Origin: an uncultured Clostridia bacterium
GTDB lineage: Bacteria > Bacillota > Clostridia > Christensenellales > UBA1242
Reading direction: 5' to 3'
Length of the DNA: 64,000 nt
Assembly (NCBI GenBank): GCA_944372465.1
Contig: CALVZG010000031.1
Span: forward strand, 3,410-67,409
Shown: positions 18,478-64,000 of the stretch, in pieces
Layout: the number at the start of each line of letters is the position of its first letter
Position numbering within the stretch: position 1 is the stretch's first letter
Translations under genes and position numbers: made by a program
Notes under the pieces: generated by a model
What the model was told of the DNA's origin: nothing
What the model saw: the letters and a program-made list of their open reading frames with translations, nothing else
The model's database searches: none

Positions 18478-19568
18478 AAAGAATAAATGCCAGACAATGT
18501 GGAGTTTTAATTGTAATGTGTATTTTTGCAAACAAAATATTACTTTTACCATCACTAATGTTTGAAAAGACTTCAGCAGATTCTATTTTTGTTTTAATAA
18601 CTCTTTTTTTGCTAGATTTAGCAATACTTCCAATTTTTATTAAGTTAAAAGAATTATATCCTGATAAAAAATTTTATGACATTTTAAAAGAGAAATTAGG
18701 AATAATAATAACAAAGATAATCTATTTTGCATTACTATTTTTCTTCTTTTTTAAATGTTTGTTGGTATTTTCTATAACTTATGTATATTTTAAACAACAA
18801 ATATACCAAGATGAATTTATATTTATGGCGTTAATAGCATTTTTACCAGTAATAAATCATGCAGTTTTAAGTGGAGTGCGTGCTTTTTCGCGTACAATAG
18901 AAATGTTTTTTGGAATAGTAATAGCAGGGTTTATAGTTTGTCTTGTTATATCATTATTTACACCAATATCATCTCCATATTTTTTTGTAACAAGTGGAAA
19001 AGATTTTTTTCTATCACTTTATGACCATATATTTGCATTTGGAGATTTTATTATTTTGTTTTTGATAATGGATAAAATAGAGTTAAAAAAAGAACAAACT
19101 AAACAACTTTTTTTGTATTCAATATTTGGTATAGTTTTGGTAGTTATTTTATTTTATTTATTTTATGCGAAATATCAAATAACAGCATTTATGCACAACA
19201 ACGCACTTGCAGATTTACTAGTATTTTCAGTCCAATTTAATGCAATAGGAAGACTAGATATTATAGCAATGTTAACAATAATGTTTATAACGCTTTTCCA
19301 AATGGAGATATTTAATTATGCTTTTTGTGATTGTTTTGTCAATATTTTCCCACTTTTAAATAAGAATTATTCAATAGTAGTTTTTGATATAGTCTTTTGT
19401 ATATCATATTATGTATTTATAGGAAAATATGAAACAATGGTAACATCAACACTTTTTTGGTTGCCATATTTAGCAATAATTATAAATTATGTTTTGCCAA
19501 TAATAGTGCTAGTAATAATAGGAATTGTAAGGAGGAAAATTGAAAAAAAAGATAAAAATATTAATTAA
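18474..19568 (+). CDS. spore germination protein, GerA-family B subunit (APC-type permease)
   Basis: 364 aa and polytopic (about 10 TM). N-terminus INARQCGVLIVMCIF resembles GerAB/SpoVAF-type permeases. Translationally coupled inside the A-B-C operon. Confidence 0.8.
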   Translation: MKRINARQCGVLIVMCIFANKILLLPSLMFEKTSADSIFVLITLFLLDLAILPIFIKLKELYPDKKFYDILKEKLGIIITKIIYFALLFFFFFKCLLVFSITYVYFKQQIYQDEFIFMALIAFLPVINHAVLSGVRAFSRTIEMFFGIVIAGFIVCLVISLFTPISSPYFFVTSGKDFFLSLYDHIFAFGDFIILFLIMDKIELKKEQTKQLFLYSIFGIVLVVILFYLFYAKYQITAFMHNNALADLLVFSVQFNAIGRLDIIAMLTIMFITLFQMEIFNYAFCDCFVNIFPLLNKNYSIVVFDIVFCISYYVFIGKYETMVTSTLFWLPYLAIIINYVLPIIVLVIIGIVRRKIEKKDKNIN

Positions 19569-20811
19569 AATGCCAATGATGATAGTATTTATTATAATAT
19601 TGTTATTTTTCACCCCTTTTGCGATATATTCACCCGGCGAAAATAGAAATAGAGGCGTAGTAACTGCACTTGGTATAGATAAGATAGATAATCAATATGA
19701 GATATCGTTATTAACATTTATCCCAACTGCTAATCAGTCTTATCGAGAAAAGAGTTCGGTTATATCTGGGAAAGGGGATTCTGTCGCAGAAGCAGTTTAT
19801 AACGCACAAATAGCAATGGGGCGTTCGGTAGGGCTTTCTCATGCAAAAACGACAGTGGTCAATGAGAATTTATTAGAGGAAGATGTAGCCTCAACCATTG
19901 ATTATTTAAGTAGAATAGCATCACTCCCAGAAAATACCGTTTTTGTATGTACAAATAAGACAGCAAAAGAGATGTTAGAAAATTCACAAGATTTAGTAAA
20001 TAATTTAGGATTAAAATTAGAACAAATTATAGCATATAATGCAAATAACCTATATGTAACAGATACTTCATTAGAGGCATTTTATAAGGGTTATTTTAGC
20101 CCTATAAAATCATCACTTATAGGATATCTAACTATAGAGGATGTAGACAACAACTCATCTAATTCTGATATAAGCAGTATTCAAAATTCAGGTGGAGATC
20201 AAAAACAAGCAAATAATGGAAGCAGTGGTGATAATAGTTCATCATCAAATAGTGGGACTAAAAAGCGTATAGTAAATCAAGGACAAGCAGTACTTTTAAA
20301 AGAAGGGAAAAAAGTGGCTTTGCTTGACATAGACCAACTAAATGGTATCAATATTTTAAACCCTAAATCTATAAATCAAATAATAAAGATTGAAAATGTA
20401 GAAAAAGATGGACAAAATTTAAGTTTAGAATACAAAATCAAGACAAAAAAGACTTTGATATCAACGAAATTTGAAAATGGATATCCAATATTCATAGCAC
20501 AACTAATATTAGGTTTAGAATTAGTAGAAATAAATGGCGAAGAAGAGGCTTTAAAAGTAAATACAGAGTTTAGCGAAATTAATGAAGAAATAGCGGGAAA
20601 AATTGAAGAGCAAATAAAAAAACAATTTACTCAATCAATAAATATATTAAGAGAATGTGATGCAGATGTTTTAGGAATAGGACGAGAATTTTTCTTTAAT
20701 AATAGAAAAGAATTTATAGAGTTTATCAATATGCTAGGAGGCAAGGAAAATGTCGATAAATTTTTAGACCATGTAACATTTAAGTTAAATATGGTAATTC
20801 AACCTGACTAA
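19540..20811 (+). CDS. Ger(x)C-family germination protein (C subunit), apparently without lipobox Cys
   Basis: 423 aa. TTG start 4 nt after GGAGG, with an alternative ATG at 19570. VTALGIDK motif of GerAC proteins. No cysteine in the N-terminal hydrophobic segment. S/N/G-rich insert (NSSNSDISSIQNSGGDQKQANNGSSGDNSSSSNSG). Confidence 0.75.
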   Translation: MKKKIKILIKMPMMIVFIIILLFFTPFAIYSPGENRNRGVVTALGIDKIDNQYEISLLTFIPTANQSYREKSSVISGKGDSVAEAVYNAQIAMGRSVGLSHAKTTVVNENLLEEDVASTIDYLSRIASLPENTVFVCTNKTAKEMLENSQDLVNNLGLKLEQIIAYNANNLYVTDTSLEAFYKGYFSPIKSSLIGYLTIEDVDNNSSNSDISSIQNSGGDQKQANNGSSGDNSSSSNSGTKKRIVNQGQAVLLKEGKKVALLDIDQLNGINILNPKSINQIIKIENVEKDGQNLSLEYKIKTKKTLISTKFENGYPIFIAQLILGLELVEINGEEEALKVNTEFSEINEEIAGKIEEQIKKQFTQSINILRECDADVLGIGREFFFNNRKEFIEFINMLGGKENVDKFLDHVTFKLNMVIQPD

Positions 20812-39813: not shown

Positions 39814-39935
39814 ACTAAAGAATGAAAGTCAATAAAAATAACAAAAAATGAAAAAATCTTATAAAATGTTTTAATTTGCTTGAAATTTTGTGCGACAATA
39901 TGTTAATATTTATAGTGATTATTATTGGAGATAAA

Positions 39936-41687
39936 ATGAAGAAGAAATTTACTGGATTTTTATTGAGTTTTTGTTTACTTTGCATGGGATTACTTGCAGG
40001 GTGCTCTTTGGTTGAAACAAATTACGGCAAGTATTATAATCAAGTAGTTGCGGTAGTTGAAAATAAAACAACAGGTCAAAAGGCAGAGATTACTAAAAGC
40101 GATTTGATATCAAGTTATCAAAGTTATGGTTATACTTATGAGCAATACAATGGTTATACAAGAGAAGAGGCAATACAACTTTCACTTGAACTTTTAGAAA
40201 ATAGAAAGATAACTCTTTTAACTGCAGAAAACGAGTTTGGTATAAACCAAGACGGAACAGGTCTTACAACAAAAGAAAAAACCTACCTCTATCAACAAGT
40301 GGTAGACTCTTTAGATAGCAACTTACAATCTTACTATGATGATATAGTAGGAACTGAAGATGAAGAAGAAAGTAGTGATGACATAACATTTGATGGTTAC
40401 ACAAAGAATGCAGTTATAAAAGAAAGTGTTGATAAAAATGGAAATACAATATATGTTATAGAAAGAACAAATGTTGAAGATGAACTTTTAGGCGACTTTT
40501 TCCCAACGGTAAACAGAGATTTTAATAATAGTGATGATAGAAATTTAATATATGAAAACTTTAGAGATTATGTATTAAACAATAATGATAATTATAAAAA
40601 AGCATTTAATAATTATTTTAATGATTTAAAAGCATCAGAATATGGTCAAAATCTATCAACAGATGCACCAAGTGTTTTTGATAGAGAGATAGATAGACTA
40701 TATAAAGTAGCATATGAAAATTATGTTGTAGAAAAATATTCTTATTCAAACAGAAATCTGGATAGTATATCATCAATCACTTCTTCACAAATTGTAGATT
40801 TATATACAAGCAAAGTAAGACAATCTTACACTCAATATGTTCTCGAAAAAGATACAAATTATGAAACGAATGTTCAAGAAAGTTTAAATGATGTTTATTA
40901 TTTTAAAAGCGGAGATAATGAAACAAAATTCTTTACTGTAGCAAATGTTCTATTCATGTTTAATGATGAGCAACAAGCAGAATATGACGCTCTTACAGCA
41001 AAGATAGAGGCAGATGACGGCGGGTATTATAGCGGACAATATCAAAAAGAATTAGATAAATTGTATGAATCAATAGAACCTGTAGTAAGAGTTTATAATG
41101 AAAATACAGGAATCTATGAAGAATTAGAAGATACAAATGGTCTTACTGTCGATGATATATACAATAGAATTGCTCTTTCATTAAGATCGGCACAAACAAC
41201 TGAAAACATAAATTATATAGGTGATACAATCAACGATTTTATCTACGAATATAATGAGGATACAGGTATGTTTAATGCAGAGTCAAACTATGTAATAGGA
41301 ATTGACTCTGAAGGTAATGCAGTTTCAAGTTTTGTAGAACCATTTAATGATGCTGCAATAGAATTATATAATAATGGAAATGCTGAAATAGGTGATATTT
41401 CAGGGCTAGTAAGAACAGAATATGGGATTCATATATTGATATATACAGGCGAATGCAAGAACCTATTTGACGGAATAAATAGTTCATTCTCGTTAAGCAG
41501 TGATGCTATAGAAACATTGTATAATACTAGAGTAAATTTACTTGTTGATAAAACATATTTTGATGTTTTATATGATGAGATTTATAGTGATAACTATAGT
41601 TATTTTGAATCATCAAACTTAAATTTCTTGCGTGAAAGTTATAATATTTCTGAATATAGTAGTAGATATTCTGACCTTTATAATTAA
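39936..41687 (+). CDS. PrsA/SurA-like peptidyl-prolyl isomerase lipoprotein (unusually long)
   Basis: I prefer the ATG at 39936 after GGAG (MKKKFTGFLLSFCLLCMGLLAGCS, lipobox LLAGC). About 583 aa. There is a parvulin-like segment near the C-terminus (GLVRTEYGIHILIYTG). Sits in the position downstream of mfd. Confidence 0.6.
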   Translation: MKKKFTGFLLSFCLLCMGLLAGCSLVETNYGKYYNQVVAVVENKTTGQKAEITKSDLISSYQSYGYTYEQYNGYTREEAIQLSLELLENRKITLLTAENEFGINQDGTGLTTKEKTYLYQQVVDSLDSNLQSYYDDIVGTEDEEESSDDITFDGYTKNAVIKESVDKNGNTIYVIERTNVEDELLGDFFPTVNRDFNNSDDRNLIYENFRDYVLNNNDNYKKAFNNYFNDLKASEYGQNLSTDAPSVFDREIDRLYKVAYENYVVEKYSYSNRNLDSISSITSSQIVDLYTSKVRQSYTQYVLEKDTNYETNVQESLNDVYYFKSGDNETKFFTVANVLFMFNDEQQAEYDALTAKIEADDGGYYSGQYQKELDKLYESIEPVVRVYNENTGIYEELEDTNGLTVDDIYNRIALSLRSAQTTENINYIGDTINDFIYEYNEDTGMFNAESNYVIGIDSEGNAVSSFVEPFNDAAIELYNNGNAEIGDISGLVRTEYGIHILIYTGECKNLFDGINSSFSLSSDAIETLYNTRVNLLVDKTYFDVLYDEIYSDNYSYFESSNLNFLRESYNISEYSSRYSDLYN

Positions 41688-43368: not shown

Positions 43369-43926
43369 ATGAAGATTACAAAGTCAAATTTTGGTTGGAT
43401 GTTTACATGTTTTGGACTATTAGTGCTACTTGGAATAGCAATTTATCTTGGTGCATCAGGGTGGTTTTTCAAGACAGATATATCTTATACAACAGATTTA
43501 GAACTTGGGAAAACTGTATCTACATCTATTAAAAAAAATCAAGCACAATCAATTTCGCTAACTTTTGATGGCTCTTATTTAGCAGGTGAAAGGCTTCCAC
43601 AAATTGTCAGTATAAAAAATAATGATGAAGAAGCAAATATTTATATTCGAGCAAAAGTTTATGTTTATAATGGAGAAAATGTAACTTTAGATATGGATAT
43701 TTTAGAAACAGTAAACTGGGTGTATAATCAAGATGATGGATATTATTATTATAATGATGTTTTAATACCGGGCGATAAAGCCACTTTATGTTCATATGTA
43801 ATTATAGGAGAGAATAGTAATTTTTCAGGACACAAAAAGTATATTTTAACTATTTTATTTGAGGCGTTATCAGAAAATGAATATGTTGTGAATTTATGGG
43901 GAACAAATCCATTACAAAATATTTGA
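43369..43926 (+). CDS. TasA/camelysin-like (SipW-type signal peptide) secreted protein, tentative
   Basis: 185 aa. The N-terminal hydrophobic segment ends ...GASGWFFKTD, like the A-x-F-x-D motif of SipW substrates. Later motifs: NIYIRAKVYVY, WVYNQDDGYYYYNDVLIPGDKAT and LFEALSEN. Judged by resemblance only. Confidence 0.4.
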   Translation: MKITKSNFGWMFTCFGLLVLLGIAIYLGASGWFFKTDISYTTDLELGKTVSTSIKKNQAQSISLTFDGSYLAGERLPQIVSIKNNDEEANIYIRAKVYVYNGENVTLDMDILETVNWVYNQDDGYYYYNDVLIPGDKATLCSYVIIGENSNFSGHKKYILTILFEALSENEYVVNLWGTNPLQNI

Positions 43927-43989
43927 CAAATGTTGAAAAAGAAATTAAAATAGTTTTTAATTAAGAATTATAGATTTTGAGGAGGAAAA

Positions 43990-44439
43990 ATGGACAAAAA
44001 AATTCCACCATTGCCACCAAGACGCCCAATACCACAAAAACCTAATATCATAAAAAATGCAAATTCATCAGGGGAAAACAAAGTAGAGGCAAACCATCAA
44101 ACAAAAATTGCAAACAATCAATCAAAAAGCATAAGTTCAATAAAAGAAGATGCTATCAAAAATCAACAAGAAAACGAGAATATTAAATTACAAGATATAG
44201 CACAAGAGGGAAATTTAAATTCAGAAAATTTAGAAACCACCGAAAAAGAAAATCAAAATAATCAAAGTGTTACAAATAAAGAAGATTTGGGACAAGAACA
44301 ACTTCAAAACATAAAATCAAAAAATAAAAATAGAGAAAATTTTTCGCAAAATATAAAATATAAAACATTATTTTTATCTATTTTATGTGCAATGTGCTTT
44401 GTGGGAGCAATTATAAGTTTTGTTTTTGTTTTGTTATAA
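43990..44439 (+). CDS. hypothetical tail-anchored protein with proline-rich N-terminus
   Basis: 149 aa. GGAGG RBS. Starts MDKKIPPLPPRRPIPQKP, then a N/Q/E/K low-complexity region, then a C-terminal TM LFLSILCAMCFVGAIISFVFVLL. Confidence 0.5.
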   Translation: MDKKIPPLPPRRPIPQKPNIIKNANSSGENKVEANHQTKIANNQSKSISSIKEDAIKNQQENENIKLQDIAQEGNLNSENLETTEKENQNNQSVTNKEDLGQEQLQNIKSKNKNRENFSQNIKYKTLFLSILCAMCFVGAIISFVFVLL

Positions 44440-44494
44440 ATCTTTGATAATATTATAGAATACAAAAAATAATAAAAATTTCGACAATTTAAAA

Positions 44495-44989
44495 ATGATA
44501 ATAAAGGAGAAAAAAGGCAATCATAAATTTATGAAAAAAATGATTGCCTTTTTTGTTTTGATATTTTTATTGATAAGTATAAACATTTTTAAGCAAAATG
44601 ATTTCTCGCCTTTCCTTAATTATTCAAAACTTGTATTAGTATCATCTCAACCATTATTTACTGAACAAGAATATATAAAAAATGGGAATGATTATTATTT
44701 TCAATTTGCCAATAATGAAGCAAGCAAAAATATATTGATGGAAAATCAAAATATAAAAAGTTATATCTTTTATTATGATAAAGATTATAAATTAAAAGAC
44801 TTTATTAAAAGTTTAGACATTATCTATAAAGGGGGACAATTAGCAGATAATAGATATACGATTTACTATGGTTATTATGGAAATTACAAAGATTATAGAA
44901 TAATTGATGGTAAAAAGATAAATTTTCAATTAGTGCATACTTCAGAAGAATGGATTTTAGGATTTCCTTTAATTACAACAGGATATTAA
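44495..44989 (+). CDS. hypothetical secreted or membrane-anchored protein
   Basis: 164 aa. The hydrophobic segment MIAFFVLIFLLISINIF follows an internal Met at 44531, so the start is ambiguous. Confidence 0.4.
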   Translation: MIIKEKKGNHKFMKKMIAFFVLIFLLISINIFKQNDFSPFLNYSKLVLVSSQPLFTEQEYIKNGNDYYFQFANNEASKNILMENQNIKSYIFYYDKDYKLKDFIKSLDIIYKGGQLADNRYTIYYGYYGNYKDYRIIDGKKINFQLVHTSEEWILGFPLITTGY

Positions 44990-45052
44990 TTAAAAAATAA
45001 AAATTAATGTATAAATCAAATTTTTTAGTCAATAAATGTTGTAGGAGGTAAC

Positions 45053-45616
45053 ATGGAAATAGGAAAAGAAAATAAGTTTGTTGAATTTTTAAAGAAGTAT
45101 GGTATTTATGTAGTAGTTGGTGTAGTAGTATTTGCAGTAGCATTGACATTTACATTATTAGCAGCTCTTAATGGAAGTGTTAGGACAGGTGGTGGAACTT
45201 TAGATTTTACTCTACCTATGAATAATGCCACAGTAGTAAAAGACTATTCAGATACCGCTCTTCAAGAAAACTCAACATTAAATCAATGGGAAGCACATCT
45301 TGCAGTTGACTTAACTTCAGAAGATAGTGATGTTTTCGCAGTATATGATGGTACTGTTGCAAGTGTAGGTTATGATTATCTTTCTGGATACACAATAACC
45401 ATATCTCATTCAGACGGATTTTTATCCATCTACTCATCATTAGCAGAAGAAGTTGAAGTAGAAGAAGGAGATAAAGTAGTCGCAGGAGAGAAAATCGGTA
45501 GTGCAAGTGAAAGTGCAGAGGGCGAACTTGATATGGGTGCACATTTACATTTTACATTAATGCTTAATGACGACTATGTAGATCCTAATGATTATTTAAG
45601 TTTGCAATTAAAATAA
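45053..45616 (+). CDS. membrane-anchored M23/LytM peptidase-domain protein, SpoIIQ-like
   Basis: 187 aa. AGGAGG RBS. N-terminal TM. The LytM domain has intact HLAVD (H-x3-D) and HLHF (H-x-H) motifs. It neighbours spoIIID, as spoIIQ does in clostridia. Confidence 0.65.
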   Translation: MEIGKENKFVEFLKKYGIYVVVGVVVFAVALTFTLLAALNGSVRTGGGTLDFTLPMNNATVVKDYSDTALQENSTLNQWEAHLAVDLTSEDSDVFAVYDGTVASVGYDYLSGYTITISHSDGFLSIYSSLAEEVEVEEGDKVVAGEKIGSASESAEGELDMGAHLHFTLMLNDDYVDPNDYLSLQLK

Positions 45617-53378: not shown

Positions 53379-53392
53379 TTTATGTAATAAAA

Positions 53393-53424
53393 ACAAATGA
53401 GTTAAATCGCTTTATCTCATTTGT
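53393..53424 (+). other. intercistronic hairpin between the ATPase and the giant gene
   Basis: Perfect 9-bp stem ACAAATGAG / CTCATTTGT with 14-nt loop, followed by CTTTAAT. The U-tract is weak, so this is at best a partial terminator or a processing/stability element. Confidence 0.4.
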
Positions 53425-53463
53425 CTTTAATAAAAAAGACATAAATAAGAAAAGGAAGGTTGT

Positions 53464-56400
53464 ATGACAAATTCTAAAAAATTAAGTATGTTTATATTTA
53501 GTTTGCTACTTGTCGTTGCAGGCTTTCTTTTTGCTTCTTGTGGAGCGAAAAATTATTCAAATGTAACATTGACAGCATCACAAGAAGAAATAATACTTTT
53601 TGCAAATGAAGAAAATGCACAAAATGTAACTTTTACCATTAACAATCCAGTTAGTGGAATGGCAAGTTCTTTAAGTTATAGTTTATCTAATCCAAGTATT
53701 TGCACTATTACAGTATTAAGCACACAGAATTATTCTACAACTTATGCCATTACAGGTATTAAAGGTGGTTTTTCGGAGTTTACAGTTAAAACAAATGAGG
53801 GGAATATTTCTCATACTATAAAAATACAAGTAAAACAATATTCTTCTGATTTGACTGCAAATAGTAATTCATTATATTTATCTCTTTCAAATCAATTATA
53901 TCCAACATCAGCAGATTTTAATTTTTCTAACAATGCGACAGAGCGTGAACTTAAATACTATTTCTATGGAGAGATAAATAATAGTGCAGAAGCATCTTTA
54001 GATGATTTAATACAAGATGGAGAATATTCAAATTCTTTTGTCAGTGCAAGTCTTATTGAAGTCGATAATAATAAATATATAATATTTGTAAATGAGCAAG
54101 GTCTTTATTATACTTTAGGGCAAGCAATAGAAGATAATAGAACTCAAAATACTATATATAATTTTTTGTCAGTCGAATATGATAACGGGCAATATTTATT
54201 CAATACAAATATTGCAACAGAAGTGCAAGCAGGTGATAAATTAACTTTTTATGCAGTTAACGAAATAGAAACGGATGAAATTTTGTCCTGTCAAAGAGAT
54301 TTTTATATTCTTGTAGACATAAATTATGAGAGTATTAGTTATGATTATGGTTATAAAATAGATGAATATGAATATACAATTGGTTCAGATAGATTATATA
54401 AAATCGAGGGAGCAAGCGAGAAAGAAATAACATTAATTCCTAGTTATAAAAGTGTCATATCAAATGGAATTTATATAGGTAATACAGTCGATTATAAAAC
54501 AATATATTTAGCTATCACTATTGAGGGCGGGAATGATTTAATACAAATCAAATCTTCTGTAGATAATTTAAATGTGATAAATGTTAAAAAATTAGGACAA
54601 CTTTCTGAAAATGAATTCACGACCTATTACTTCCAAATAGATTGTGCTTCAGGAGTAGGAAATATTACAAATTTTAATGTGAACTTATACTATGCAGGTT
54701 TTGAAAATAGTGAAGATAGTAATGTAAATTTTGTATATTCTTTACCTGTAAGAATAAGAGTTATACCTACCAATCTATTAGTTAATAATGTTGATTTAAC
54801 AACAACAGAACATACATATACTTTTTATAATAGTTATGCAGGTCAATCATTTGGTTGGCAAGAGTTTATGTTTACAGTTAATCCTGCAGATGCTGAATAT
54901 GAAAGTTTATCAATTAATTTGACTGGAAGTAGTTTACAATTAAGGTATAACAATACAATTTATTCTAATCAAATAGTAGAGATAAAAGACTTAAGTATTC
55001 CTATTTATTTAAAAGGCATAGAAAATTCAGCAATAACGACTGAAGACCAATTAGTTTCAATAACTTTATATTTCAATGTAATACAAAACGACTCTTTACA
55101 ATTAGAATTAAAATATAAAATCGCACAAGGTGCAACCTTAATAGATTATAAAACAGAAGCATTTAAAGAGAGAATTTATCTTGATTACAATAATACAGAT
55201 TTTGTAGAGTTTTTAGATATCTATGCTAATGCACAGTTTGAAGATATAAAAGTTAATAATATTTCAGGGAGTGATGTTGCAAGATTTGCAATTGATTCAA
55301 GTAATTTGTATGAGCAAGAAGGAAACAACTATATTTTAAATTTAAAAATCAAGGCAATGACTGCTGGAACAGGGACATATTCTATAGTATTAGATAACGG
55401 AATGCAAACATCTCTTACCATAACAGTGCAAGAAACTTTAAATGATGTAGAAATAATTACGCAAAATCAACAAAATTCTATAAAGTATAATGAGAATATA
55501 AAGGAAGAAAATAGAAATTCGACATTATTTTATGTATATAATGATGAAAATAATGATACATTTTTTGATGTTGAAATTCAAGCTAATAATAATGAAAATT
55601 CACAAGCAATCACAAACATACAATTTAATATAAATTCACAAATAATTCAATTAAGAAATGCAACAAATAACAATAAAAATTTTGATATCTATACAATAAG
55701 CAATGGCTCAAGTGAAGTTGAGTTAGTGATAAACGGCTATAGTATAACAAACTTTGTTTTAGAAAATAAAACATTATATTATTATTTAGATGTAGTTGCT
55801 TTTAGTTACATAGAAAATTTGAATGTTTATAAAGAAAAAGATGGAAGAGGTAATTATTTAGATGCAAGCAATGTAAATGAAAATATAAGAAATTATGGGG
55901 TAAATGCGGCTTATGCATATGTTTATTCAGGGACAACACAATCAAATGCAAGAGAAGTAAAATTTAATATAACAGTAAATAATAAAAATGCATATCTATT
56001 TGCTTCACCAGAATTATTAAATTATGAAACGAGAATAACATACATAAAAAATTCATTTGACCCAAGTTATGTATATTGGGAAACAGACTCCGATCAAGGT
56101 ATTCAATTAAATGGTGAATATGTAAATATAATGTACAAATCAAACAATTACAATAATATCTATACTATTGTTGGGTTGGGGACATTTGATACAGAAACTA
56201 TGACATTTACGGCATTTTCTGACTTACAAAATGAAAGAAGTTTTAAATTAATAGCCCATGTTAGACAATACGGAAGAGTTTATTCTTATACAATAAATGT
56301 AAGGATTTCAATTTATGAAGAAGTTAATCGCATAACTTTACAAGAATCATTAACAGAAATAGAGTTTACATCAACAAATAGGCAAGAAACATTGATTGCT

Positions 56401-59400
56401 TATCCTACAAATCTCACAGCCACAAACGGAGAAATCGTTGCATTATTTGAGGGTGGTTCGATAACTGTAGAGAATGAAAATGGAATAAATGAAACATATT
56501 ATATGATAGACGAAAATTCAATAGAGTATATTGAAAGTAGTGGAAGGTATCAAATAATACTAACAGTTAATGATGAGTTTGTTAAGTATGCAGAAAATTA
56601 TGAAAGCGAGATGAAAGGAACTTTATATATAGTTGCTAGAGATTGGCTAGATGAAAATAACAATATATTAAGCGACTATCAAAGTTTGGCGATAACAATA
56701 GATGTAAGATTTGCAAATGGTACAGAGCAAAATAGATTTAACATTTCTAGCACTGATGATTTAATAAATATGAATTTGTCAGCACATTATAGAATAAATA
56801 CAACAATAGATGTTTCTACTATAAGTGATAAATTACCTCTTGGAACATTGAAAGGTTCAATTGTTGGTACAAGTGAATATTCAGAAATTACTGGGATAAA
56901 CATAATTAATTATTCTACAGGAAGTGATGAAAATAATTATTATGGTTTATTCTCATCTATTGCAGAAGGTGCATATATAGAATATGTTTCATTTTCAGGA
57001 CAATTCAATATAGGCGAAGAAGAGAATCAATCATCATATGCTAAAAGTAATAGTTACATAGGTATTGTAGCGGGCATTAATAATGGAACATTGATAAACA
57101 TAGGTGTAACTATATCTAGTTCTCAAATTAATGTTACAAGTGGGTATATCGGAGGTGTAGTAGGTTACAATAATGGAAGTATTATTCAAGACTACACACT
57201 CTTTGAAGATAATTCATCTAATACAAGAAGTTATAACGAAATACAATTAAAAAATGAAAATGGTAATTATGATATTGTTGGAGCAGGCAGATATAGTTAT
57301 GCTGGATATAACCCAAAAATTCTTACATACATGACAGGGGATATAATAGTTAATTATATTTCAAATCAATCTTTACAAGGTTCATTAAATACTTATGTTG
57401 GTGGTGTAATTGGTTATAATAATGGAAGTATAACAAAAATAGATACAAAAGTTTTAAATTTTGCAGGATATACAAACTATTTGGTATATTCTTTGATAAA
57501 AGTAGAGCCGGTCTTATTTGGAAGTTCTTCTTCAATAACAAATATGACATATGTAGGAGCCCTTGTTGGTTTCAGTAGCAATAATAGTTCTATATATAGT
57601 GGTTATAATAATTATCAAAATGACACTTTATCATTTACAAAATATTTATATTATGAAAATTCAATTCAGTCAAATACTACAAACGACTATACTGCAGGTC
57701 AAGGTATTGTTGTAGGTGGAGAAGTTAGTGGATATGACTATGTTGGAGGAGTAATAGGATATATAGACACAGTAGGAGAAAATGGTATATCAATAAATGA
57801 TTTTACAGGAATTACATCTCGAACATTTGTAACAGGTTATCTGTCTTCTTCGGCAACACCAACACCAGCCCGCGTAGCAGGAATAGTATATATAAATAAT
57901 GTTGAAACATTAACATCTGCTTTTGCTCTACAAGCAGTAGATGTCGGGAATGCAGGCATAAACGCTTCAATGATTGTAATTTATAATACATCTATAATAG
58001 ACGCATATTATAGTAATGTAGAAGAAAACATAGCAAATTCAAATAAACTTGCTTTTGGAATATCAACAAATAATATTGTAGCGGTCATGAATGGAGTAGA
58101 GGGCGAGAAACAAGAGAATATTAATTATACCAATGTATACTCATATGTTGTATCAAGAGAAAGACTTTTGTTAGCTCAAGATAGCAGTAGTTTAACTATA
58201 AATAATTTAACAAAGACATCATATTATGGTGATTTTATAATTGTTGGTGATAATGGTAGTACGCTTTTAGGGCAATCATTCTTTACAAGTGGAGGAACAG
58301 AATTTTTATCATTAAAGGCAAATTATAATAATAAATTAGAAGCAAATGACTATCCTGAATATCAAGGAATAGGCAATAATGAAATATATTATATGTTTTA
58401 TTTTAAAGCTTCTTCAACAAATTCTTCATCAACTGGTGAAGATTATCAATATCTTCTTGATACATATATGAATTATGTAAGTTATGGAAGTATATTGTAT
58501 CCATTTATAACTAATGGGGAAATGATATTTACATCAAATACTCGAAGCGTGCTTACAATAGATCAAAATGGCAGAATACATGTGTTAGGCACAGGGCTTG
58601 CTCAAATTTCTGCAACAAGTATATTAAATACTAATAATGCAATAGATTTTTATATATATGTTGTTAATTATTTTAATCCTGATGAACCAACTTTTACTGA
58701 TGGTGAAGAAAAAGATAATTCAATAATATATCCTAATGGTTCGGCATCATCACTTCCTATTGATGATACTACTATAAATTTAAGAGGACAAAATAGTGCA
58801 ATATTGTATGTTAGACCTAATTACACTTTAAGTATGAGTATATCTTCAAGCACAAGTAGTAATCAAACTTTTGAGTCTAATGCTTTAGGAGAGGCAACTT
58901 TAAATAATGTAGTATTTAATTTGGAAACTAACAATGTAGTTACAGCCCAAATAACAAGCGTCCAAAAGTTAAATTCAGAAGGGATAATGGAAGAAGCAAC
59001 AGAAGAACTTGATATTGAAATTACAGGTCAAACAATAACAATAAGACGCAATGAAAATACAACAGAAAGTGATTATAAATTAGTAATAAACCCACAACTT
59101 CAAATTACATTTAATGAAACAGATAAGAATACAAACAACCAAGTTGAAATTGTATATTCATCAAATGTTAATAAACAACTTGATAATGTTATAGTAAATT
59201 ATAGAAAAGGTGCTTCATCAATAAATAATTCAAAATATAATGAAGTTACGCTTTTATCAAGCAAAAAAGTAGAAGATTTAATAATTATTAATTCTACTGC
59301 ATTAGAAGAAACTCCATATTATTACATAGTAGGTTTAAACAATGAAAATATTCAAGGAAGCGAAGCACTAAAAGACTTAGGTTTTTCTTTCTTGTATGAT

Positions 59401-62400
59401 ATAGAGCCTTCAAATAATTATGGAGAAAACTTCCTATTTGACATAACTTTCTTGAAAGATGCAAACAACTCGACTGATTTAACAAATCAAAAATTTAATT
59501 TAACAATATCAGTAAACAAAAATTCACAAGCATATGTTAATAGATATATAGAAAATATATATGGTCAGTATACAATTTACATTCTTGCTCAATCAAATAC
59601 ATCAGTTTATACTGCTATTACAATAAATTTTGAGCAAACTAGTATAACTTCAGTTGTAATAGACAATTATTCAAATTTATCAGAAGCAACAGGCAATGCA
59701 GGGATTACGACAAATTCAGAATATGCTTATCCAGGTACGACAGGTCTTATTGCTATTACAATAACACCTGAAGATAGTGATTTTGATTATATTTTGATAG
59801 AGAACGCAGAAAGTAATTATCAAGCAGGGAATGCTTCTGCTACATTTGGTTTTCTTGCTAGAAAGGCAAATTCTCAAGGGGAAGACAATATATTTGATGA
59901 TAAATCAATAGTAGGTTCAACAACTGCAACAGGCTTAAAAATAAATTTAGATAATATAATAAAAACTTATAATCAAACAGATGATAAAGGACAAAATCTA
60001 TATTATATTTATAATGGAGTAATATATATAAGTTATAATATGGATTCATATAATGTAAATGATGAAAGCATAACATCAATTAAAATTACATTGATGAAAG
60101 ATGGGGTAGAAGCCTATACTGTAACTAAAAATTTAACAATTAGATTACAAAATTATGTAACTGTTGAATTAGATGGTAAAACGCCAACAAGTTCAAATGA
60201 AGGTGGATATTATGCGACATATACAGTTGCAAGAGGTTTAAGATATAAATTAAACATAAATTCTTACGGATATCTTTCTACAAGCATATCAGCCCCACAA
60301 TTATCAAATAATACATTAGCAAATATTGTAGAAGAAAATGGTGAGTATTATCTAGAAATCACTTCAAATAATATAGATTATAATGCTAATTCATTTAATA
60401 TCACTATTACTGCAACACAGAAAGATGGTGATGTGGTGCGAACTTCAACAAGTACAACACATATAGTGGTTCAAGAATATGTAGTTAATTATAACGGAGA
60501 GAATGTAGGCAAAAGTGAAGATATTGTAAGCGGAATGGGAGATGGACAAATCAACATTCAAGTTGGTACACAAACAACATTTAGTATAGATATTTATAAT
60601 TTTATTGAATATGATGAAACAAATGTTGAAATTGTAAATAGCGTGGCATATTTTATGCAAAGTCTTGCTACAGAAGGATTATGGAAAGTCAACACGAATT
60701 TGATAAGCGATACTCAACCTGATTATGCAGAGGCAGATGAAAATGGATTGGTTTATTATTTAGGTTATGATGAAAACGGGCAGATAATTTCTGGGAATAA
60801 TTATTACTTTAATTATAGTGGACTTAATTTTATACCTATAAGAACTCATGTCCCTGAAGATAGATTTTATTATATTAACTTCTATGCTAATTTTACATAT
60901 TCAAGTTCTAATGGAACATATATGGTTTTAAAGTCAACGCAAAATGATGATAATATAGTTATAGGCAGTCAAACAGTACACACTGAATTTGTCCTTAATG
61001 TATATTCATCAAGTAGCGAAGAAAGTCCTATTCCAATATATGATTATAGTGATTTCTTGAATATGCAATCAGGAGGATATTATATACTATTAAATGATAT
61101 AACACTTCCTAATGTTTCAAACATAGAGAAAGGTATTGAGGCATATACTCCACAAAATGCAAATTTCAAGTCTTTAGATGGAAACGGTCATACAATAAAC
61201 TTTGCTGGTAAATATGATATGGGTTCATTAACAGATATAGGCTTATTTACAAGATTGTCAGAAGGCTGTGTAATCAAAAATCTAAATGTAAATTTCACAT
61301 CGGCAACTGATGGTTCAGATTTGAATATAGAACAAAATGATTATGGTTGGTATGGTTTACGAACAGTTAAATTTGTAACAACAGCAGATAGTTTTAATTT
61401 TGGTTCAATTGTTGTAGATAACCAAGGAATAATAACTAATTGCAAGGTAACAACTGACAATGTAAATGGAAATGAGTATTATATTGTTGTGGAAGCAAAC
61501 AATGCATTATTCGGCTCAAGTTATATGGGCGGACTTGTGTCATCTAATTCTGGATATATCACTAATTGTTCAGTTTCTGTCAATATGAAAACACCATATT
61601 ATATGGGTGGTGTAGTAGCACAAAATTCAGGGAAAATTGCATCAACATATTTTAAAGATGGTATTTTAATAAATAATTCACAACAAAATCAACATGTTGC
61701 AGGCTTTGTAGTAACAAATAGTAGTTCTGGTCAAATAATAACAAGTTATGTATCTGGTAAACAGTCAAGTACATCATTATTTAGTAAAGATACTGATAGT
61801 TATATTATGTCAACAATATCATCTGCAGGATTTGTATTCGAAAATCAAGGAAGTATAAGTGATTGTTATACAGACATATTATTATCAAAGACTACTGGTG
61901 ATATGGCTGGATTTGCTTACTATAATAGTGGAACTATCAGAAATTCATTCTCACTTTCTCAACTACGAAATAATGTTACTGCTTCTGCAGGTTTTGCAAG
62001 ATACAACACTCAAGAAGGGACCATAGGTACTTTTGAAAATTGTTATTATTTCTATAACGAAGCACAAGATAGAACTACAGTAGGGCAAACATCAAATTAT
62101 TTGAGTGATGATGGATTTATAATAAATGAATTAGATATCAATACTTCAGTTATCCCAATTTCATATGAGGGCATAGAGAAGTTGAATGCTGGAGGATTTT
62201 CAAACATAGAAGAAAATTTTGGAAGTTATTCATATCAATCATCAATAGGAGTAAATGCGGTTTGGTTCTTTAGTACGGGGAATACTTCAACGACATATGT
62301 AGATTACATTCCAACAACTGAAAAAATTGAGATATCTGGAGATGGTGAAAATGTACAAACAAATACAGTGTACACAACTCAACTAAAAACTTTCGGATTA

Positions 62401-64000
62401 AACAGGTTGGAACTTGTAAGTCCAAACATCGCAACACTTTCAATAAGAAACTTTAGTTACTCTGAAATAGATGCAACAACAGGAGAAACAAATTATTATT
62501 ACATTGATGACGCTTCAGCTCCAAATAGAGGTTCAATTCATAACCCAAGATTAATATATGATGCAAATACAATGGAGTCGGAAATATTAGAACAAAATTC
62601 CAATACAAATTCTAATACAACAAATTATAGAATTATAAGTGATATAGATTATTCGGATTATGATGGTTTATCTCAATTATATAAAACAACATTTGCTGGA
62701 ATTTTAGAAGGTAATGGAATGGAAATTTCAAGAATAAGTCTTGTTTCCATGGATAATTTGACAAGTGCAGGATTATTTGCACAAATAGGAAGTTCAGCAA
62801 ATAGAACAGGGGCGGTTAAGAATTTAACAATCATACCAACTCAAATAGCATTTACAAATACAAATAGTGTAGGTGCTCTTGCTGGAACTCTCCGATATGG
62901 ATATATTTATGATATAACGGTAAATGCGGGGACAACTACAAATGTCGTAATTGGTCAAAACTTCGTTGGTGGAGTTGTTGGACGGGCTATAACATCTTAC
63001 ACAATAAAAAATGTATCAAGTAATATAAGTGTGTCAGCAACATATACATCTTCACTTGATAACATATATTCAGAAACAACTTCAAATTTAGATAGTTATT
63101 CATATGCAGGAAGTGTAGCTGGATATTTAGGAACAGGTAATATATACAATATAAATGTAAGTAATGTAAATTCAATTTTGGGAAGCCGTGCTGGATTAGC
63201 CTTTGGAGGTATAGGGAATAAAGCAAATGTACAATATGTTTATGTTGATGTAAAACAAGACAGTATTATAAGAGCTTACCATTATGGCGGATATGTAGCG
63301 GGAGAAATTTCAGGTAATTTAAGTTATGTGCAAGTATCAAATAATCAAAATGTAGAAGAAACATTTGTGGTAGTTCCAAGAGCAGCAAGCGCTGTGGGAG
63401 GAATAACTGGTTTACTTTCAGGAGGAAAGATAAGCAATGCGGTAATGGAACAAAGTTTTAAGGCTACATCAGTAAGTTCGTCATCAAATGTAATCAAGTA
63501 TGTAGGAGGAATTGCTGGAATTGTAACAGATGCAGGTAATACTCCATCATACATAGAATATTGTGTAGTAAATGCTAGTATAGAAAGTTCTTCTATTTTA
63601 GGTGGTGCTGTAGGTCAGGTAGAAAATGCTGTTATAGCAGATAACATAGCAATCAAGAGTTCGTCATTAACTGTCAGTGGACAATCAATAAATCCATATT
63701 TAGGCGGAATAATAGGGTACTTGACTAATGATAACAATTCATCTTTAACTATGACAAATAGTTATTGCACAACACCTTTAACTATAAATACAAGCACATC
63801 AGGTGTGGAATCTACAGCTTCAGCTGGTGGGTTAATAGGTTATGCAGAAAGGACTCCAACATTAGCATATTGTTATACAACATCAACAATATCAGCAACT
63901 GTTGTTGATAATAGGTCTATATCAAGTGTAACTGATTATAGTAATGTAACTTCTGATAACGATAATAACGATAATATTGCTATATTTAACTATGTTATAA
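53464..64000 (+). CDS. giant surface lipoprotein (over 3,512 aa, 3' end beyond the window) with Ig-like domains and three GLUG-repeat beta-helix modules
   Basis: Not in the supplied track because it has no stop in the window. AAGGAAGG RBS. The ATG at 53464 gives MTNSKKLSMFIFSLLLVVAGFLFASCG (lipobox FASC). I translated 53464-58680, 58981-59160 and 61021-63999 by hand without meeting a stop. No other plus-strand ORF of 60 aa or more is listed anywhere in 53379-64000. GLUG-type repeats include YIGGVVGYNNGSIIQDY, YMGGLVSSNSGYITNCS, LGGIIGYLTNDN and AGGLIGYAE. A Big_2-like segment reads VLTIDQNGRIHVLGTGLAQISATS. Confidence 0.85.
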   Translation, partial: MTNSKKLSMFIFSLLLVVAGFLFASCGAKNYSNVTLTASQEEIILFANEENAQNVTFTINNPVSGMASSLSYSLSNPSICTITVLSTQNYSTTYAITGIKGGFSEFTVKTNEGNISHTIKIQVKQYSSDLTANSNSLYLSLSNQLYPTSADFNFSNNATERELKYYFYGEINNSAEASLDDLIQDGEYSNSFVSASLIEVDNNKYIIFVNEQGLYYTLGQAIEDNRTQNTIYNFLSVEYDNGQYLFNTNIATEVQAGDKLTFYAVNEIETDEILSCQRDFYILVDINYESISYDYGYKIDEYEYTIGSDRLYKIEGASEKEITLIPSYKSVISNGIYIGNTVDYKTIYLAITIEGGNDLIQIKSSVDNLNVINVKKLGQLSENEFTTYYFQIDCASGVGNITNFNVNLYYAGFENSEDSNVNFVYSLPVRIRVIPTNLLVNNVDLTTTEHTYTFYNSYAGQSFGWQEFMFTVNPADAEYESLSINLTGSSLQLRYNNTIYSNQIVEIKDLSIPIYLKGIENSAITTEDQLVSITLYFNVIQNDSLQLELKYKIAQGATLIDYKTEAFKERIYLDYNNTDFVEFLDIYANAQFEDIKVNNISGSDVARFAIDSSNLYEQEGNNYILNLKIKAMTAGTGTYSIVLDNGMQTSLTITVQETLNDVEIITQNQQNSIKYNENIKEENRNSTLFYVYNDENNDTFFDVEIQANNNENSQAITNIQFNINSQIIQLRNATNNNKNFDIYTISNGSSEVELVINGYSITNFVLENKTLYYYLDVVAFSYIENLNVYKEKDGRGNYLDASNVNENIRNYGVNAAYAYVYSGTTQSNAREVKFNITVNNKNAYLFASPELLNYETRITYIKNSFDPSYVYWETDSDQGIQLNGEYVNIMYKSNNYNNIYTIVGLGTFDTETMTFTAFSDLQNERSFKLIAHVRQYGRVYSYTINVRISIYEEVNRITLQESLTEIEFTSTNRQETLIAYPTNLTATNGEIVALFEGGSITVENENGINETYYMIDENSIEYIESSGRYQIILTVNDEFVKYAENYESEMKGTLYIVARDWLDENNNILSDYQSLAITIDVRFANGTEQNRFNISSTDDLINMNLSAHYRINTTIDVSTISDKLPLGTLKGSIVGTSEYSEITGINIINYSTGSDENNYYGLFSSIAEGAYIEYVSFSGQFNIGEEENQSSYAKSNSYIGIVAGINNGTLINIGVTISSSQINVTSGYIGGVVGYNNGSIIQDYTLFEDNSSNTRSYNEIQLKNENGNYDIVGAGRYSYAGYNPKILTYMTGDIIVNYISNQSLQGSLNTYVGGVIGYNNGSITKIDTKVLNFAGYTNYLVYSLIKVEPVLFGSSSSITNMTYVGALVGFSSNNSSIYSGYNNYQNDTLSFTKYLYYENSIQSNTTNDYTAGQGIVVGGEVSGYDYVGGVIGYIDTVGENGISINDFTGITSRTFVTGYLSSSATPTPARVAGIVYINNVETLTSAFALQAVDVGNAGINASMIVIYNTSIIDAYYSNVEENIANSNKLAFGISTNNIVAVMNGVEGEKQENINYTNVYSYVVSRERLLLAQDSSSLTINNLTKTSYYGDFIIVGDNGSTLLGQSFFTSGGTEFLSLKANYNNKLEANDYPEYQGIGNNEIYYMFYFKASSTNSSSTGEDYQYLLDTYMNYVSYGSILYPFITNGEMIFTSNTRSVLTIDQNGRIHVLGTGLAQISATSILNTNNAIDFYIYVVNYFNPDEPTFTDGEEKDNSIIYPNGSASSLPIDDTTINLRGQNSAILYVRPNYTLSMSISSSTSSNQTFESNALGEATLNNVVFNLETNNVVTAQITSVQKLNSEGIMEEATEELDIEITGQTITIRRNENTTESDYKLVINPQLQITFNETDKNTNNQVEIVYSSNVNKQLDNVIVNYRKGASSINNSKYNEVTLLSSKKVEDLIIINSTALEETPYYYIVGLNNENIQGSEALKDLGFSFLYDIEPSNNYGENFLFDITFLKDANNSTDLTNQKFNLTISVNKNSQAYVNRYIENIYGQYTIYILAQSNTSVYTAITINFEQTSITSVVIDNYSNLSEATGNAGITTNSEYAYPGTTGLIAITITPEDSDFDYILIENAESNYQAGNASATFGFLARKANSQGEDNIFDDKSIVGSTTATGLKINLDNIIKTYNQTDDKGQNLYYIYNGVIYISYNMDSYNVNDESITSIKITLMKDGVEAYTVTKNLTIRLQNYVTVELDGKTPTSSNEGGYYATYTVARGLRYKLNINSYGYLSTSISAPQLSNNTLANIVEENGEYYLEITSNNIDYNANSFNITITATQKDGDVVRTSTSTTHIVVQEYVVNYNGENVGKSEDIVSGMGDGQINIQVGTQTTFSIDIYNFIEYDETNVEIVNSVAYFMQSLATEGLWKVNTNLISDTQPDYAEADENGLVYYLGYDENGQIISGNNYYFNYSGLNFIPIRTHVPEDRFYYINFYANFTYSSSNGTYMVLKSTQNDDNIVIGSQTVHTEFVLNVYSSSSEESPIPIYDYSDFLNMQSGGYYILLNDITLPNVSNIEKGIEAYTPQNANFKSLDGNGHTINFAGKYDMGSLTDIGLFTRLSEGCVIKNLNVNFTSATDGSDLNIEQNDYGWYGLRTVKFVTTADSFNFGSIVVDNQGIITNCKVTTDNVNGNEYYIVVEANNALFGSSYMGGLVSSNSGYITNCSVSVNMKTPYYMGGVVAQNSGKIASTYFKDGILINNSQQNQHVAGFVVTNSSSGQIITSYVSGKQSSTSLFSKDTDSYIMSTISSAGFVFENQGSISDCYTDILLSKTTGDMAGFAYYNSGTIRNSFSLSQLRNNVTASAGFARYNTQEGTIGTFENCYYFYNEAQDRTTVGQTSNYLSDDGFIINELDINTSVIPISYEGIEKLNAGGFSNIEENFGSYSYQSSIGVNAVWFFSTGNTSTTYVDYIPTTEKIEISGDGENVQTNTVYTTQLKTFGLNRLELVSPNIATLSIRNFSYSEIDATTGETNYYYIDDASAPNRGSIHNPRLIYDANTMESEILEQNSNTNSNTTNYRIISDIDYSDYDGLSQLYKTTFAGILEGNGMEISRISLVSMDNLTSAGLFAQIGSSANRTGAVKNLTIIPTQIAFTNTNSVGALAGTLRYGYIYDITVNAGTTTNVVIGQNFVGGVVGRAITSYTIKNVSSNISVSATYTSSLDNIYSETTSNLDSYSYAGSVAGYLGTGNIYNINVSNVNSILGSRAGLAFGGIGNKANVQYVYVDVKQDSIIRAYHYGGYVAGEISGNLSYVQVSNNQNVEETFVVVPRAASAVGGITGLLSGGKISNAVMEQSFKATSVSSSSNVIKYVGGIAGIVTDAGNTPSYIEYCVVNASIESSSILGGAVGQVENAVIADNIAIKSSSLTVSGQSINPYLGGIIGYLTNDNNSSLTMTNSYCTTPLTINTSTSGVESTASAGGLIGYAERTPTLAYCYTTSTISATVVDNRSISSVTDYSNVTSDNDNNDNIAIFNYVI

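Follow-up and report, generated by a model that had tools for sequence, protein, structure and literature searches.

The DNA analysed here is a 64,000-nucleotide stretch from an uncultured Clostridia bacterium (contig CALVZG010000031.1, positions 3,410 to 67,409; hereafter the window), and its end is occupied by one giant gene for a predicted lipoprotein. Translation of the window in frame +1 from position 53464 to 64000 gave 3,512 sense codons and no stop, compared with 208 to 413 stops in each of the five remaining frames of that interval, and at the local base composition the probability of such an open frame by chance is about 1e-145. There was no in-frame TGA. The gene is absent from the list of open reading frames (ORFs) because the frame continues beyond the window end, and frames of this kind are excluded by the ORF tool by design, as the initial annotation of this stretch, made from the letters by themselves, had supposed. 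Two intervals which that annotation had left untranslated (58681-58980 and 59161-61020) were checked for a stop or a frameshift and are open. What the initial annotation missed is the place of the giant gene, between a domesticated VirB4-type ATPase and rpoB at all loci examined; no other aspect of the locus is as distinctive.

The start at 53464 is well defined because a ribosome-binding site, AGGAAGG, precedes the ATG and an in-frame TAA lies five codons upstream of it. The N terminus reads MTNSKKLSMFIFSLLLVVAGFLFAS/CG and has two lysines (K5/K6), a 15-residue hydrophobic core and a lipobox cysteine, Cys26. It thus carries the charged n-region, the hydrophobic h-region and the lipobox ([LVIFM]-x-[AGS]-C) of a lipoprotein. 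All 12 aligned sequences share K5/K6, the hydrophobic core and C26, and divergent family members keep the lipobox too (FFVGC, FFAGC), so the lipoprotein signal first recognized as FLFASC stands. The signal peptide is the sole transmembrane (TM)-like segment, and the part of the protein encoded in the window has an isoelectric point of 4.26 and a mass of 385 kDa. The window also encodes a 603-amino-acid (aa) lipoprotein (39876-41687, plus strand; lipobox LLAGC/S) whose C-terminal 'GIHILIY' recalls PrsA/PpiC foldases. It is 51-52% identical in relatives and gave no Pfam or NCBIfam match at E <= 0.01. The presence of this second canonical-looking lipoprotein suggests that the lipoprotein pathway is in use.

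A scan of species-representative genomes returned 15 related loci, in metagenome-assembled genomes of uncultured Clostridia, Eubacteriales and Firmicutes from human, mouse and other guts, with a best identity of 72%. The giant gene aligned in one frame across the whole 3,512 residues at 11 of the 15. Each of eleven species-level orthologues is a single intact ORF, 3,503 to 3,872 aa long, in which the signal peptide and the lipobox recur, and from these lengths the window copy lacks only about 300 aa. By homology, therefore, the gene would end about 300 aa past the window and the full protein would have about 3,800 residues and a mass of about 420 kDa. The corresponding C-terminal part of the orthologues, about 300 residues, is the most variable region of the protein and closes in a conserved 'W..S...STL.FE.DL.W' tail. 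The ends of the 11 full-length orthologues contained no LPXTG and no TM helix, their last 300 or so residues had no Pfam domain except sub-threshold Glug, and a C-terminal query found no match in the JGI metagenomes. The sorting signal, membrane helix or catalytic domain that the initial annotation had proposed to look for beyond the window edge is thus absent from these orthologues.

We determined the extent of the family with an exhaustive HMMER (phmmer) search of 1.84 billion (1.84e9) cluster representatives, using aa 1546-2519 as the query. There were 74 matches, 55 of them with E <= 1e-30, and identity went down to 28%. Nearly all of the strong matches were proteins of 3,300-3,900 aa with the matching region at the same relative position. 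The family comprises at least 45 clusters at 50% identity in which full length is kept, and it includes members with 38-44% GC. A protein of this size is therefore the family norm, not the exception for a small AT-rich Firmicute that it had been taken for. The only public name of these proteins is 'hypothetical protein [Clostridia bacterium]'. Conserved positions are distributed evenly over the length of the protein (40-66% identity per 100 aa, with a peak across modules 2 and 3; see below), and G, Y, F, N and P make up most of the residues that are invariant in the 12-sequence alignment. Across the lineage the giant protein is 44-45% identical versus 63-82% for the products of neighbouring genes; faster evolution is usual for exposed surface proteins. 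The gene is single-copy. These results show that a large lineage of uncultured gut Clostridia has inherited it vertically as a universal core gene, and that its unannotated products form a new family, which belongs to the known class of giant surface proteins of bacteria that are built of beta-helices and immunoglobulin (Ig)-like domains.

Domain searches were informative only when the protein was cut up. A whole-protein Pfam scan gave no family and 600-aa pieces were needed for any match, an NCBIfam scan of all pieces gave none, and a 12-orthologue profile had no match among the sequences of the PDB. With the Pfam Glug family (PF07581, cut-off 20.5 bits), module 3 passed in the window protein itself (25.2 bits, six stretches), and modules 1 and 2 were sub-threshold (10 and 12.1 bits). 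Glug passed at the homologous positions of orthologues, for module 1 in L005 (22.7 bits) and for module 2 in L013 (21.8 bits) and L017 (31.7 bits). When sub-alignments were compared with hhalign, module 1 matched module 2 with a probability of 96.4% and E = 1.3e-9, and each of these matched module 3 more weakly (E about 1e-4), against E >= 0.19 for control comparisons with non-GLUG regions. The three GLUG modules of the initial annotation are therefore borne out by profiles. Its claim of a shared entry pattern holds for modules 2 and 3, where D/E-G-N-G-H/M-x-I followed by G-L-F is invariant, and only partially for module 1. A recent duplication, for which it had suggested looking, was not found: self-comparison by BLASTP and BLASTN gave one 38-nt match and otherwise no similarity, which makes the modules ancient rather than recent duplicates.

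We modelled aa 2513-3512 with AlphaFold2 from 19 sequences, and the model had a mean predicted local distance difference test (pLDDT) score of 80 and a predicted template-modelling (pTM) score of 0.68. It contains two long beta-helices (aa ~2522-2862 and ~3052-3482) with a less confident beta domain between them. Model residues 10-350, corresponding to module 2, form beta-helix strands mostly at pLDDT 85-96, and residues 540-970 form the helix of module 3. A Foldseek search of the PDB with this model returned right-handed parallel beta-helices exclusively. The top probabilities were those of GLUG-bearing IgA1 proteases of Gram-positive bacteria (7uvk, 0.99; 6xja, 0.97; 7jgj, 0.90), followed by the adhesins Ag43 and EtpA, PL6 and GH28 enzymes and phage tailspikes, and a viral library gave the same fold class. 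These models show modules 2 and 3 folding as right-handed beta-helices, and module 1 is a putative beta-helix tied to module 2 only through hhalign. Module 2 is the most conserved part of the whole protein (63-66% identity), and the domain between the two modelled helices, aa 2871-3039, is 56-64% identical across orthologues. When all pieces were scanned with Pfam and NCBIfam, no family of peptidases, carbohydrate-active enzymes (CAZymes), lyases or hydrolases came up, and HExxH occurs neither in the window protein nor in 11 orthologues.

The remaining regions are beta-rich and largely family-specific. An AlphaFold2 model of the N-terminal 1,075 residues (4 sequences) was all-beta with a pLDDT of 47. 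Its residues 11-100 are better defined and form seven strands at pLDDT 70-85; the Ig-like domain annotated there thus has its beta-sandwich, with only moderate confidence. Within it, aa 74-123 gave a sub-threshold Pfam match to T2SS-T3SS_pil_N (E = 0.022). The region that follows, aa 126-1091, had no Pfam, NCBIfam or PDB match and only three relatives in a word-indexed search of 5.8e9 proteins. Foldseek with the N-terminal model returned generic tandem Ig-like arrays at TM-scores < 0.2, and we set aside specific fold claims from this model because a pLDDT of 47 is too poor. The region is probably made up of tandem beta-sandwich domains, and the long beta region first described there agrees with the all-beta model, low as its confidence is. 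In the middle region, aa ~1661-1795 matched multi-copy repeats in the database proteins P0207-P0222 (phmmer, library-wide E = 5e-11 to 1e-3), and all seven of these that we scanned with Pfam are multi-copy Big_2 (PF02368) proteins. This transitive homology supports the Big_2-like domain of the initial annotation; a direct match was not obtained with Pfam Big_2, even at E <= 10, or in the PDB sequence search. The features of the locus are collected in Table 1.

Table 1. Features of the giant lipoprotein gene and of the genes upstream of it, in window coordinates.
Feature	Position	Strand	Basis
DUF1858 protein, 88 aa	49365..49631	-	Pfam DUF1858, 52.4 bits
PRC-barrel protein, 243 aa	49747..50478	+	Pfam PRC, E = 9.8e-8
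Membrane-anchored VirB4-type ATPase, 886 aa	50718..53378	+	NCBIfam, PDB 4AG5, direct read
Ribosome-binding site AGGAAGG	53453..53459	+	4 nt 5' of ATG; read directly
Signal peptide II with lipobox, aa 1-26, LFAS/C, predicted lipidated Cys26	53464..53541	+	Sequence and alignment
N-terminal Ig-like beta-sandwich, aa ~36-125	53569..53838	+	AlphaFold2, moderate support
Family-specific all-beta N-terminal region, aa 126-1091	53839..56736	+	Low-confidence AlphaFold2
GLUG beta-helix module 1 (putative helix), aa 1092-1545	56737..58098	+	hhalign; Glug in orthologue L005
Middle beta-rich region, aa 1546-2519, family-specific except Big_2 domain	58099..61020	+	Exhaustive search
Big_2-type Ig-like domain, aa ~1661-1795	58444..58848	+	Transitive homology
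GLUG beta-helix module 2, aa 2520-2870, entry motif DGNGHTI ... GLF	61021..62073	+	AlphaFold2, Foldseek, Glug in L013/L017
Conserved inter-helix domain, mostly beta, aa 2871-3039	62074..62580	+	AlphaFold2 residues ~390-510, low-medium confidence
GLUG beta-helix module 3, aa 3040-3512+, entry motif EGNGMEI ... GLF, truncated at window end	62581..64000	+	Pfam Glug, AlphaFold2

The gene directly upstream encodes an ATPase with two N-terminal TM helices (a VirB3-like hairpin) and intact Walker A (GKSGSGKS) and Walker B (VVVDEAH) motifs. Among the NCBIfam VirB4 families that it matched, the best was NF045975, 'Mbov_0397 family ICE element conjugal transfer ATPase', with 568.4 bits along the entire protein, narrowly below the equivalog cut-off of 590 bits. 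It also matched the solved Thermoanaerobacter VirB4 (PDB 4AG5) with E = 7e-43 and the Pfam families P-loop_TraG, AAA_10 and DUF87. On these matches we take the ATPase to be a genuine member of the VirB4 family. It is only 23-33% identical to VirB4 proteins of plasmids and of integrative and conjugative elements (ICEs), a sign that it has long been inherited vertically and under strong constraint. No other product of the block is as conserved within the lineage: the ATPase is 81-82% identical, versus 72% for HflX, 66-67% for Fba and 44-45% for the giant protein. Its best 120 database relatives were all 81-92% identical, and when metagenomes were scanned with a profile of the ATPase, close relatives were all that came up.

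We then compared the order of the genes in relatives. The ATPase gene lies directly upstream of the giant gene in 21 of the 21 loci examined. The gap between them is 85 nt in the window, with a median of 63 nt in the 21 loci and only 2-11 nt in several, and the two genes are probably co-transcribed. The PRC-barrel gene is found upstream of the ATPase gene in every locus that extends that far, and the DUF1858 gene keeps its position, on the opposite strand to the block. On the other side, the giant gene directly precedes rpoB and rpoC in every relative, with an intergenic distance of about 200-370 nt to rpoB where both ends could be read. In Firmicutes, rpoB is usually preceded by the ribosomal protein genes rplJ-rplL. 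Three far more distant members (GC 38-44%), in which RpoB is 70-74%, the ATPase 62-65% and the giant protein 27-30% identical, keep the order DUF1858 (minus strand), PRC-barrel, VirB4-like, giant gene, rpoB, rpoC, and the genes further upstream differ. RNA polymerase evolves only slightly more slowly than the ATPase. The PRC-barrel protein has a Lys/Asn-rich tail and, at 28-44% identity, matches the giant protein in its rate of evolution. A search for genes of a type IV coupling protein (VirD4/T4CP), a relaxase, and VirB6-like or VirB8-like proteins found none in the window or within +/-10 kb of the locus in relatives.

The 85-nt gap contains a perfect 9-bp AT-rich inverted repeat, ACAAATGAG...CTCATTTGT, with a 14-nt loop followed by CTTTAAT (53385-53416, plus strand). 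A terminator scan made no call on it. It could not be conserved in some relatives because the gap there is only 2-21 nt.

The wider neighbourhood identifies the host as a walled, spore-forming Firmicute with the standard genetic code, judging from its gene content: pth, mfd, the PrsA-like lipoprotein gene, a SpoIIQ-like M23 peptidase gene, fba, hflX, GerA/B/C, ftsH, and VanW-type and MurJ-type genes. A Mollicute or code-4 origin was considered and rejected, given the spore germination and peptidoglycan genes and the lack of in-frame TGA. Location on an ICE or another mobile element was rejected as well, since the flanks are pth-mfd, HflX and rpoBC and the GC content is like that of the surroundings, uniformly about 28% across the window. 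The locus is core chromosomal. The GerA/GerB/GerC spore-germination receptor operon (17053-20811, plus strand), together with SpoIIID in relatives, shows the organism to be an endospore-former, as opposed to a reduced Firmicute of the Mollicute kind. At 43369-45616 (plus strand), three small conserved ORFs (185, 149 and 164 aa) are followed by the SpoIIQ-like M23 peptidase gene, a cluster that is collinear in relatives L019 and L021. The 185-aa ORF, the first of this cluster, weakly resembles SipW-dependent BsaA/TasA-type matrix proteins (E = 0.005).

Based on these results, we think that the giant protein is probably a lipid-anchored, long fibrillar surface protein that serves in adhesion or contact. 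Sec would export it, signal peptidase II would cleave the signal, and Cys26 would be lipidated, which would tether the N terminus to the cytoplasmic membrane at its outer face. Outward from this anchor there would be a stalk of Ig-like and Big_2 beta-sandwiches interrupted by three right-handed GLUG-type beta-helices. The fibre would reach through the cell wall and be exposed at the surface, where the three beta-helices and the variable C-terminal tail of about 300 residues may provide the surfaces for contact with, or adhesion to, host glycans, mucus or other cells. The initial annotation had named the protein a candidate adhesin for host or cell contact. We retain this as the most reasonable interpretation of the fold, the anchoring, the acidity and the fast evolution, from which we infer the function. 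Several points weigh against it. Adhesion is deduced from the fold class only, and beta-helices are also found in polysaccharide lyases, hydrolases and phage depolymerases, which are among the weaker Foldseek matches. The parts without a confident structural model (aa 126-1091 and 1546-2519) make up about 60% of the protein, and the gene order beside rpoB could reflect general synteny and not function.

A possible extension of this interpretation, which we hold only tentatively, is that the giant lipoprotein and the upstream ATPase, perhaps with the PRC-barrel and DUF1858 proteins, form one module, a domesticated VirB4 machine with the lipoprotein as its contact arm. The lipoprotein would make or sense contact between cells or with the host, and the ATPase would power transfer or assembly across the envelope; this adds to an adhesin role and does not exclude it. 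The assignment of the ATPase to VirB4, with both Walker motifs and the VirB3-like hairpin in place, is consistent with such a machine. So are the strict adjacency of the two genes, with gaps that are very short in several loci, the persistence of the pair through deep divergence of the giant protein while upstream genes change, and the conservation of the ATPase above all others in the block, even in the deepest comparison. [quoted passage not shown] However, none of the coupling protein, relaxase, VirB6-like and VirB8-like genes sought near the locus is there, and the giant protein has its own Sec/signal peptidase II signal and therefore needs no T4SS for its export. Adjacency is the sole link between the two proteins, and the block sits in a generally syntenic core region by rpoBC.

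A more speculative proposal can be built on the same pairing. The lineage may have domesticated a VirB4 as a slow-evolving core gene and coupled it, throughout the existence of the lineage, to a lipid-anchored beta-helix/Ig fibre of about 3,300-3,900 residues. Together with the PRC-barrel and DUF1858 proteins, the pair might then constitute an undescribed minimal envelope machine that is contact-dependent and non-conjugative, and whose locus lacks the rest of the canonical T4SS parts. The machine might serve in transfer, in uptake or in assembling the fibre.

It is unlikely that the protein is instead a surface-anchored multi-enzyme that binds or degrades glycans, with catalytic beta-helix modules (pectate-lyase, GH28 or depolymerase-like) acting on host or dietary polysaccharides. 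The gut habitat would suit such an enzyme, and Foldseek also matched PL6 alginate lyases, GH28 polygalacturonases, GH110, a fucoidan lyase and phage depolymerases or tailspikes, but only with probabilities of 0.1-0.5 and E = 0.01-0.5, versus 0.90-0.99 for the IgA1 proteases. At the entry of module 2 in an orthologue there is a sub-threshold match to the pectate-lyase-like family PF20585 (20 bits versus a cut-off of 24.3), a family that is itself described as an adhesive domain. The enzyme families that this explanation calls for were sought in every piece of the protein with Pfam and NCBIfam and did not appear, and the invariant residues (G, Y, F, N and P) include no obvious acidic or basic catalytic cluster.

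We consider it similarly improbable that the protein is not an adhesin and forms a structural layer of the envelope, either a surface-layer (S-layer)-like coat or sheath or an envelope protein linked to sporulation. The single-copy core status of the gene, its place beside rpoBC and its conservation over the full length would fit a structural component, and the N-terminal model matched the S-layer proteins SbsB, SbsC, Sap and EA1. Those matches come from the model with a pLDDT of 47, have TM-scores < 0.2 and reflect generic tandem beta-sandwiches. Pfam scans found no SLH, CWB2 or other cell-wall-binding domain, and a lipid anchor and a monomer of 3,800 aa are atypical for S-layers. The sporulation genes of the wider neighbourhood (SpoIIID, the SpoIIQ-like M23 peptidase gene and GerABC) would be in line with a sporulation-related role, but housekeeping genes separate them from the unit and they are replaced in divergent relatives.

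The giant gene is broken by stops or frameshifts in six relatives (L001, L002, L003, L012, L023 and L024). The split in L023 is a scaffold gap of Ns, the L024 contig also has fragmented rpoB and rpoC, and the L002 and L012 contigs have only 2-3x coverage. In addition, the 90% cluster of one truncated protein (P0001) holds an intact member of 3,873 aa. Since the splits have such mundane causes, we rejected both pseudogenization and programmed splitting, and phase variation as a general feature. That the long frame is a decaying pseudogene or an assembly artefact and not a functional gene, as the split copies might suggest, is very improbable in view of these causes, the stop-free 3,512 codons of the window copy, the intact cluster member and the 45 or more full-length clusters. 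The breaks in the two independent relatives L002 (5917-5922, an in-frame TAG) and L003 (2427-2435, a 1-nt shift) lie within one codon of each other, corresponding to window aa ~731-733 (about 55654-55662), a coincidence of position for which these causes do not account.

The giant gene defines an unannotated family that is largely invisible to Pfam. Its product is probably the dominant surface structure of widespread uncultured Clostridia of the human, mouse and livestock gut, and is therefore a natural candidate for attachment to host or partner cells. The pairing with VirB4 offers a testable example of a conjugation ATPase recruited into the core cell biology of Firmicutes, a kind of recruitment discussed so far mainly for Patescibacteria, and the locus merits follow-up because the giant gene is invariably partnered with a slow-evolving chromosomal VirB4. 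The analysis also shows that the largest gene of a contig can stay hidden when an ORF list omits end-truncated frames, and that whole-protein Pfam scans can come back empty for such giant proteins.

Two known systems resemble the pairing of an ATPase with a surface protein. In the mycoplasma ICE, the surface lipoprotein CDS14 is essential for transfer and promotes contact between donor and recipient, alongside the VirB4 protein CDS17 (PMC6030558). The two modules share an NF045975-type VirB4 encoded with a surface lipoprotein. Here, however, the ATPase falls below the NF045975 cut-off, the locus is core chromosomal and there is no DDE transposase, VirD4 or other ICE gene. The giant lipoprotein is apparently far larger than CDS14, and we liken the two by role and not by homology. 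In Patescibacteria, a chromosomal, relaxase-less T4SS of the mating-pair formation (MPF) type FATA has been co-opted (PMC12102498). Common to both lineages are a monoderm-type chromosomal VirB4 that is widespread within its lineage, no relaxase nearby and a presumed repurposing. In our locus VirB4 is the only such component and the host is a spore-forming member of the Clostridia, not an epibiont, and pairing with a giant lipoprotein is not described for the Patescibacteria system (PMC12102498).

The giant protein itself can be compared with two groups of surface proteins. With the IgA1/Zmp metalloproteases of Streptococcus pneumoniae (6XJA, 7JGJ) and Gemella haemolysans (7UVK) it shares the right-handed beta-helix with GLUG turns. 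Those proteases have an M26 protease domain with HExxH, and the giant protein has neither of these and no LPXTG. It has three beta-helices where they have one, its anchor is an N-terminal lipid, and identity to them is only 12%. The second group comprises giant fibrillar adhesins of Gram-positive and Gram-negative bacteria (Ebh, SasG/Aap-type and RTX/BAP) and beta-helix adhesins (Ag43, EtpA and FHA), which like the giant protein are very large, acidic, all-beta and fast-evolving. The giant protein mixes an Ig-like (Big_2) stalk with beta-helix modules, and its fold matches include Ag43, EtpA and RTX extender repeats. Unlike these adhesins, it has no near-identical tandem repeats and no signals for sortase or for type I or type V secretion (T1SS, T5SS). 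It carries an N-terminal lipobox anchor instead, and it is encoded not by an accessory virulence gene but by a single-copy core gene in a fixed position.

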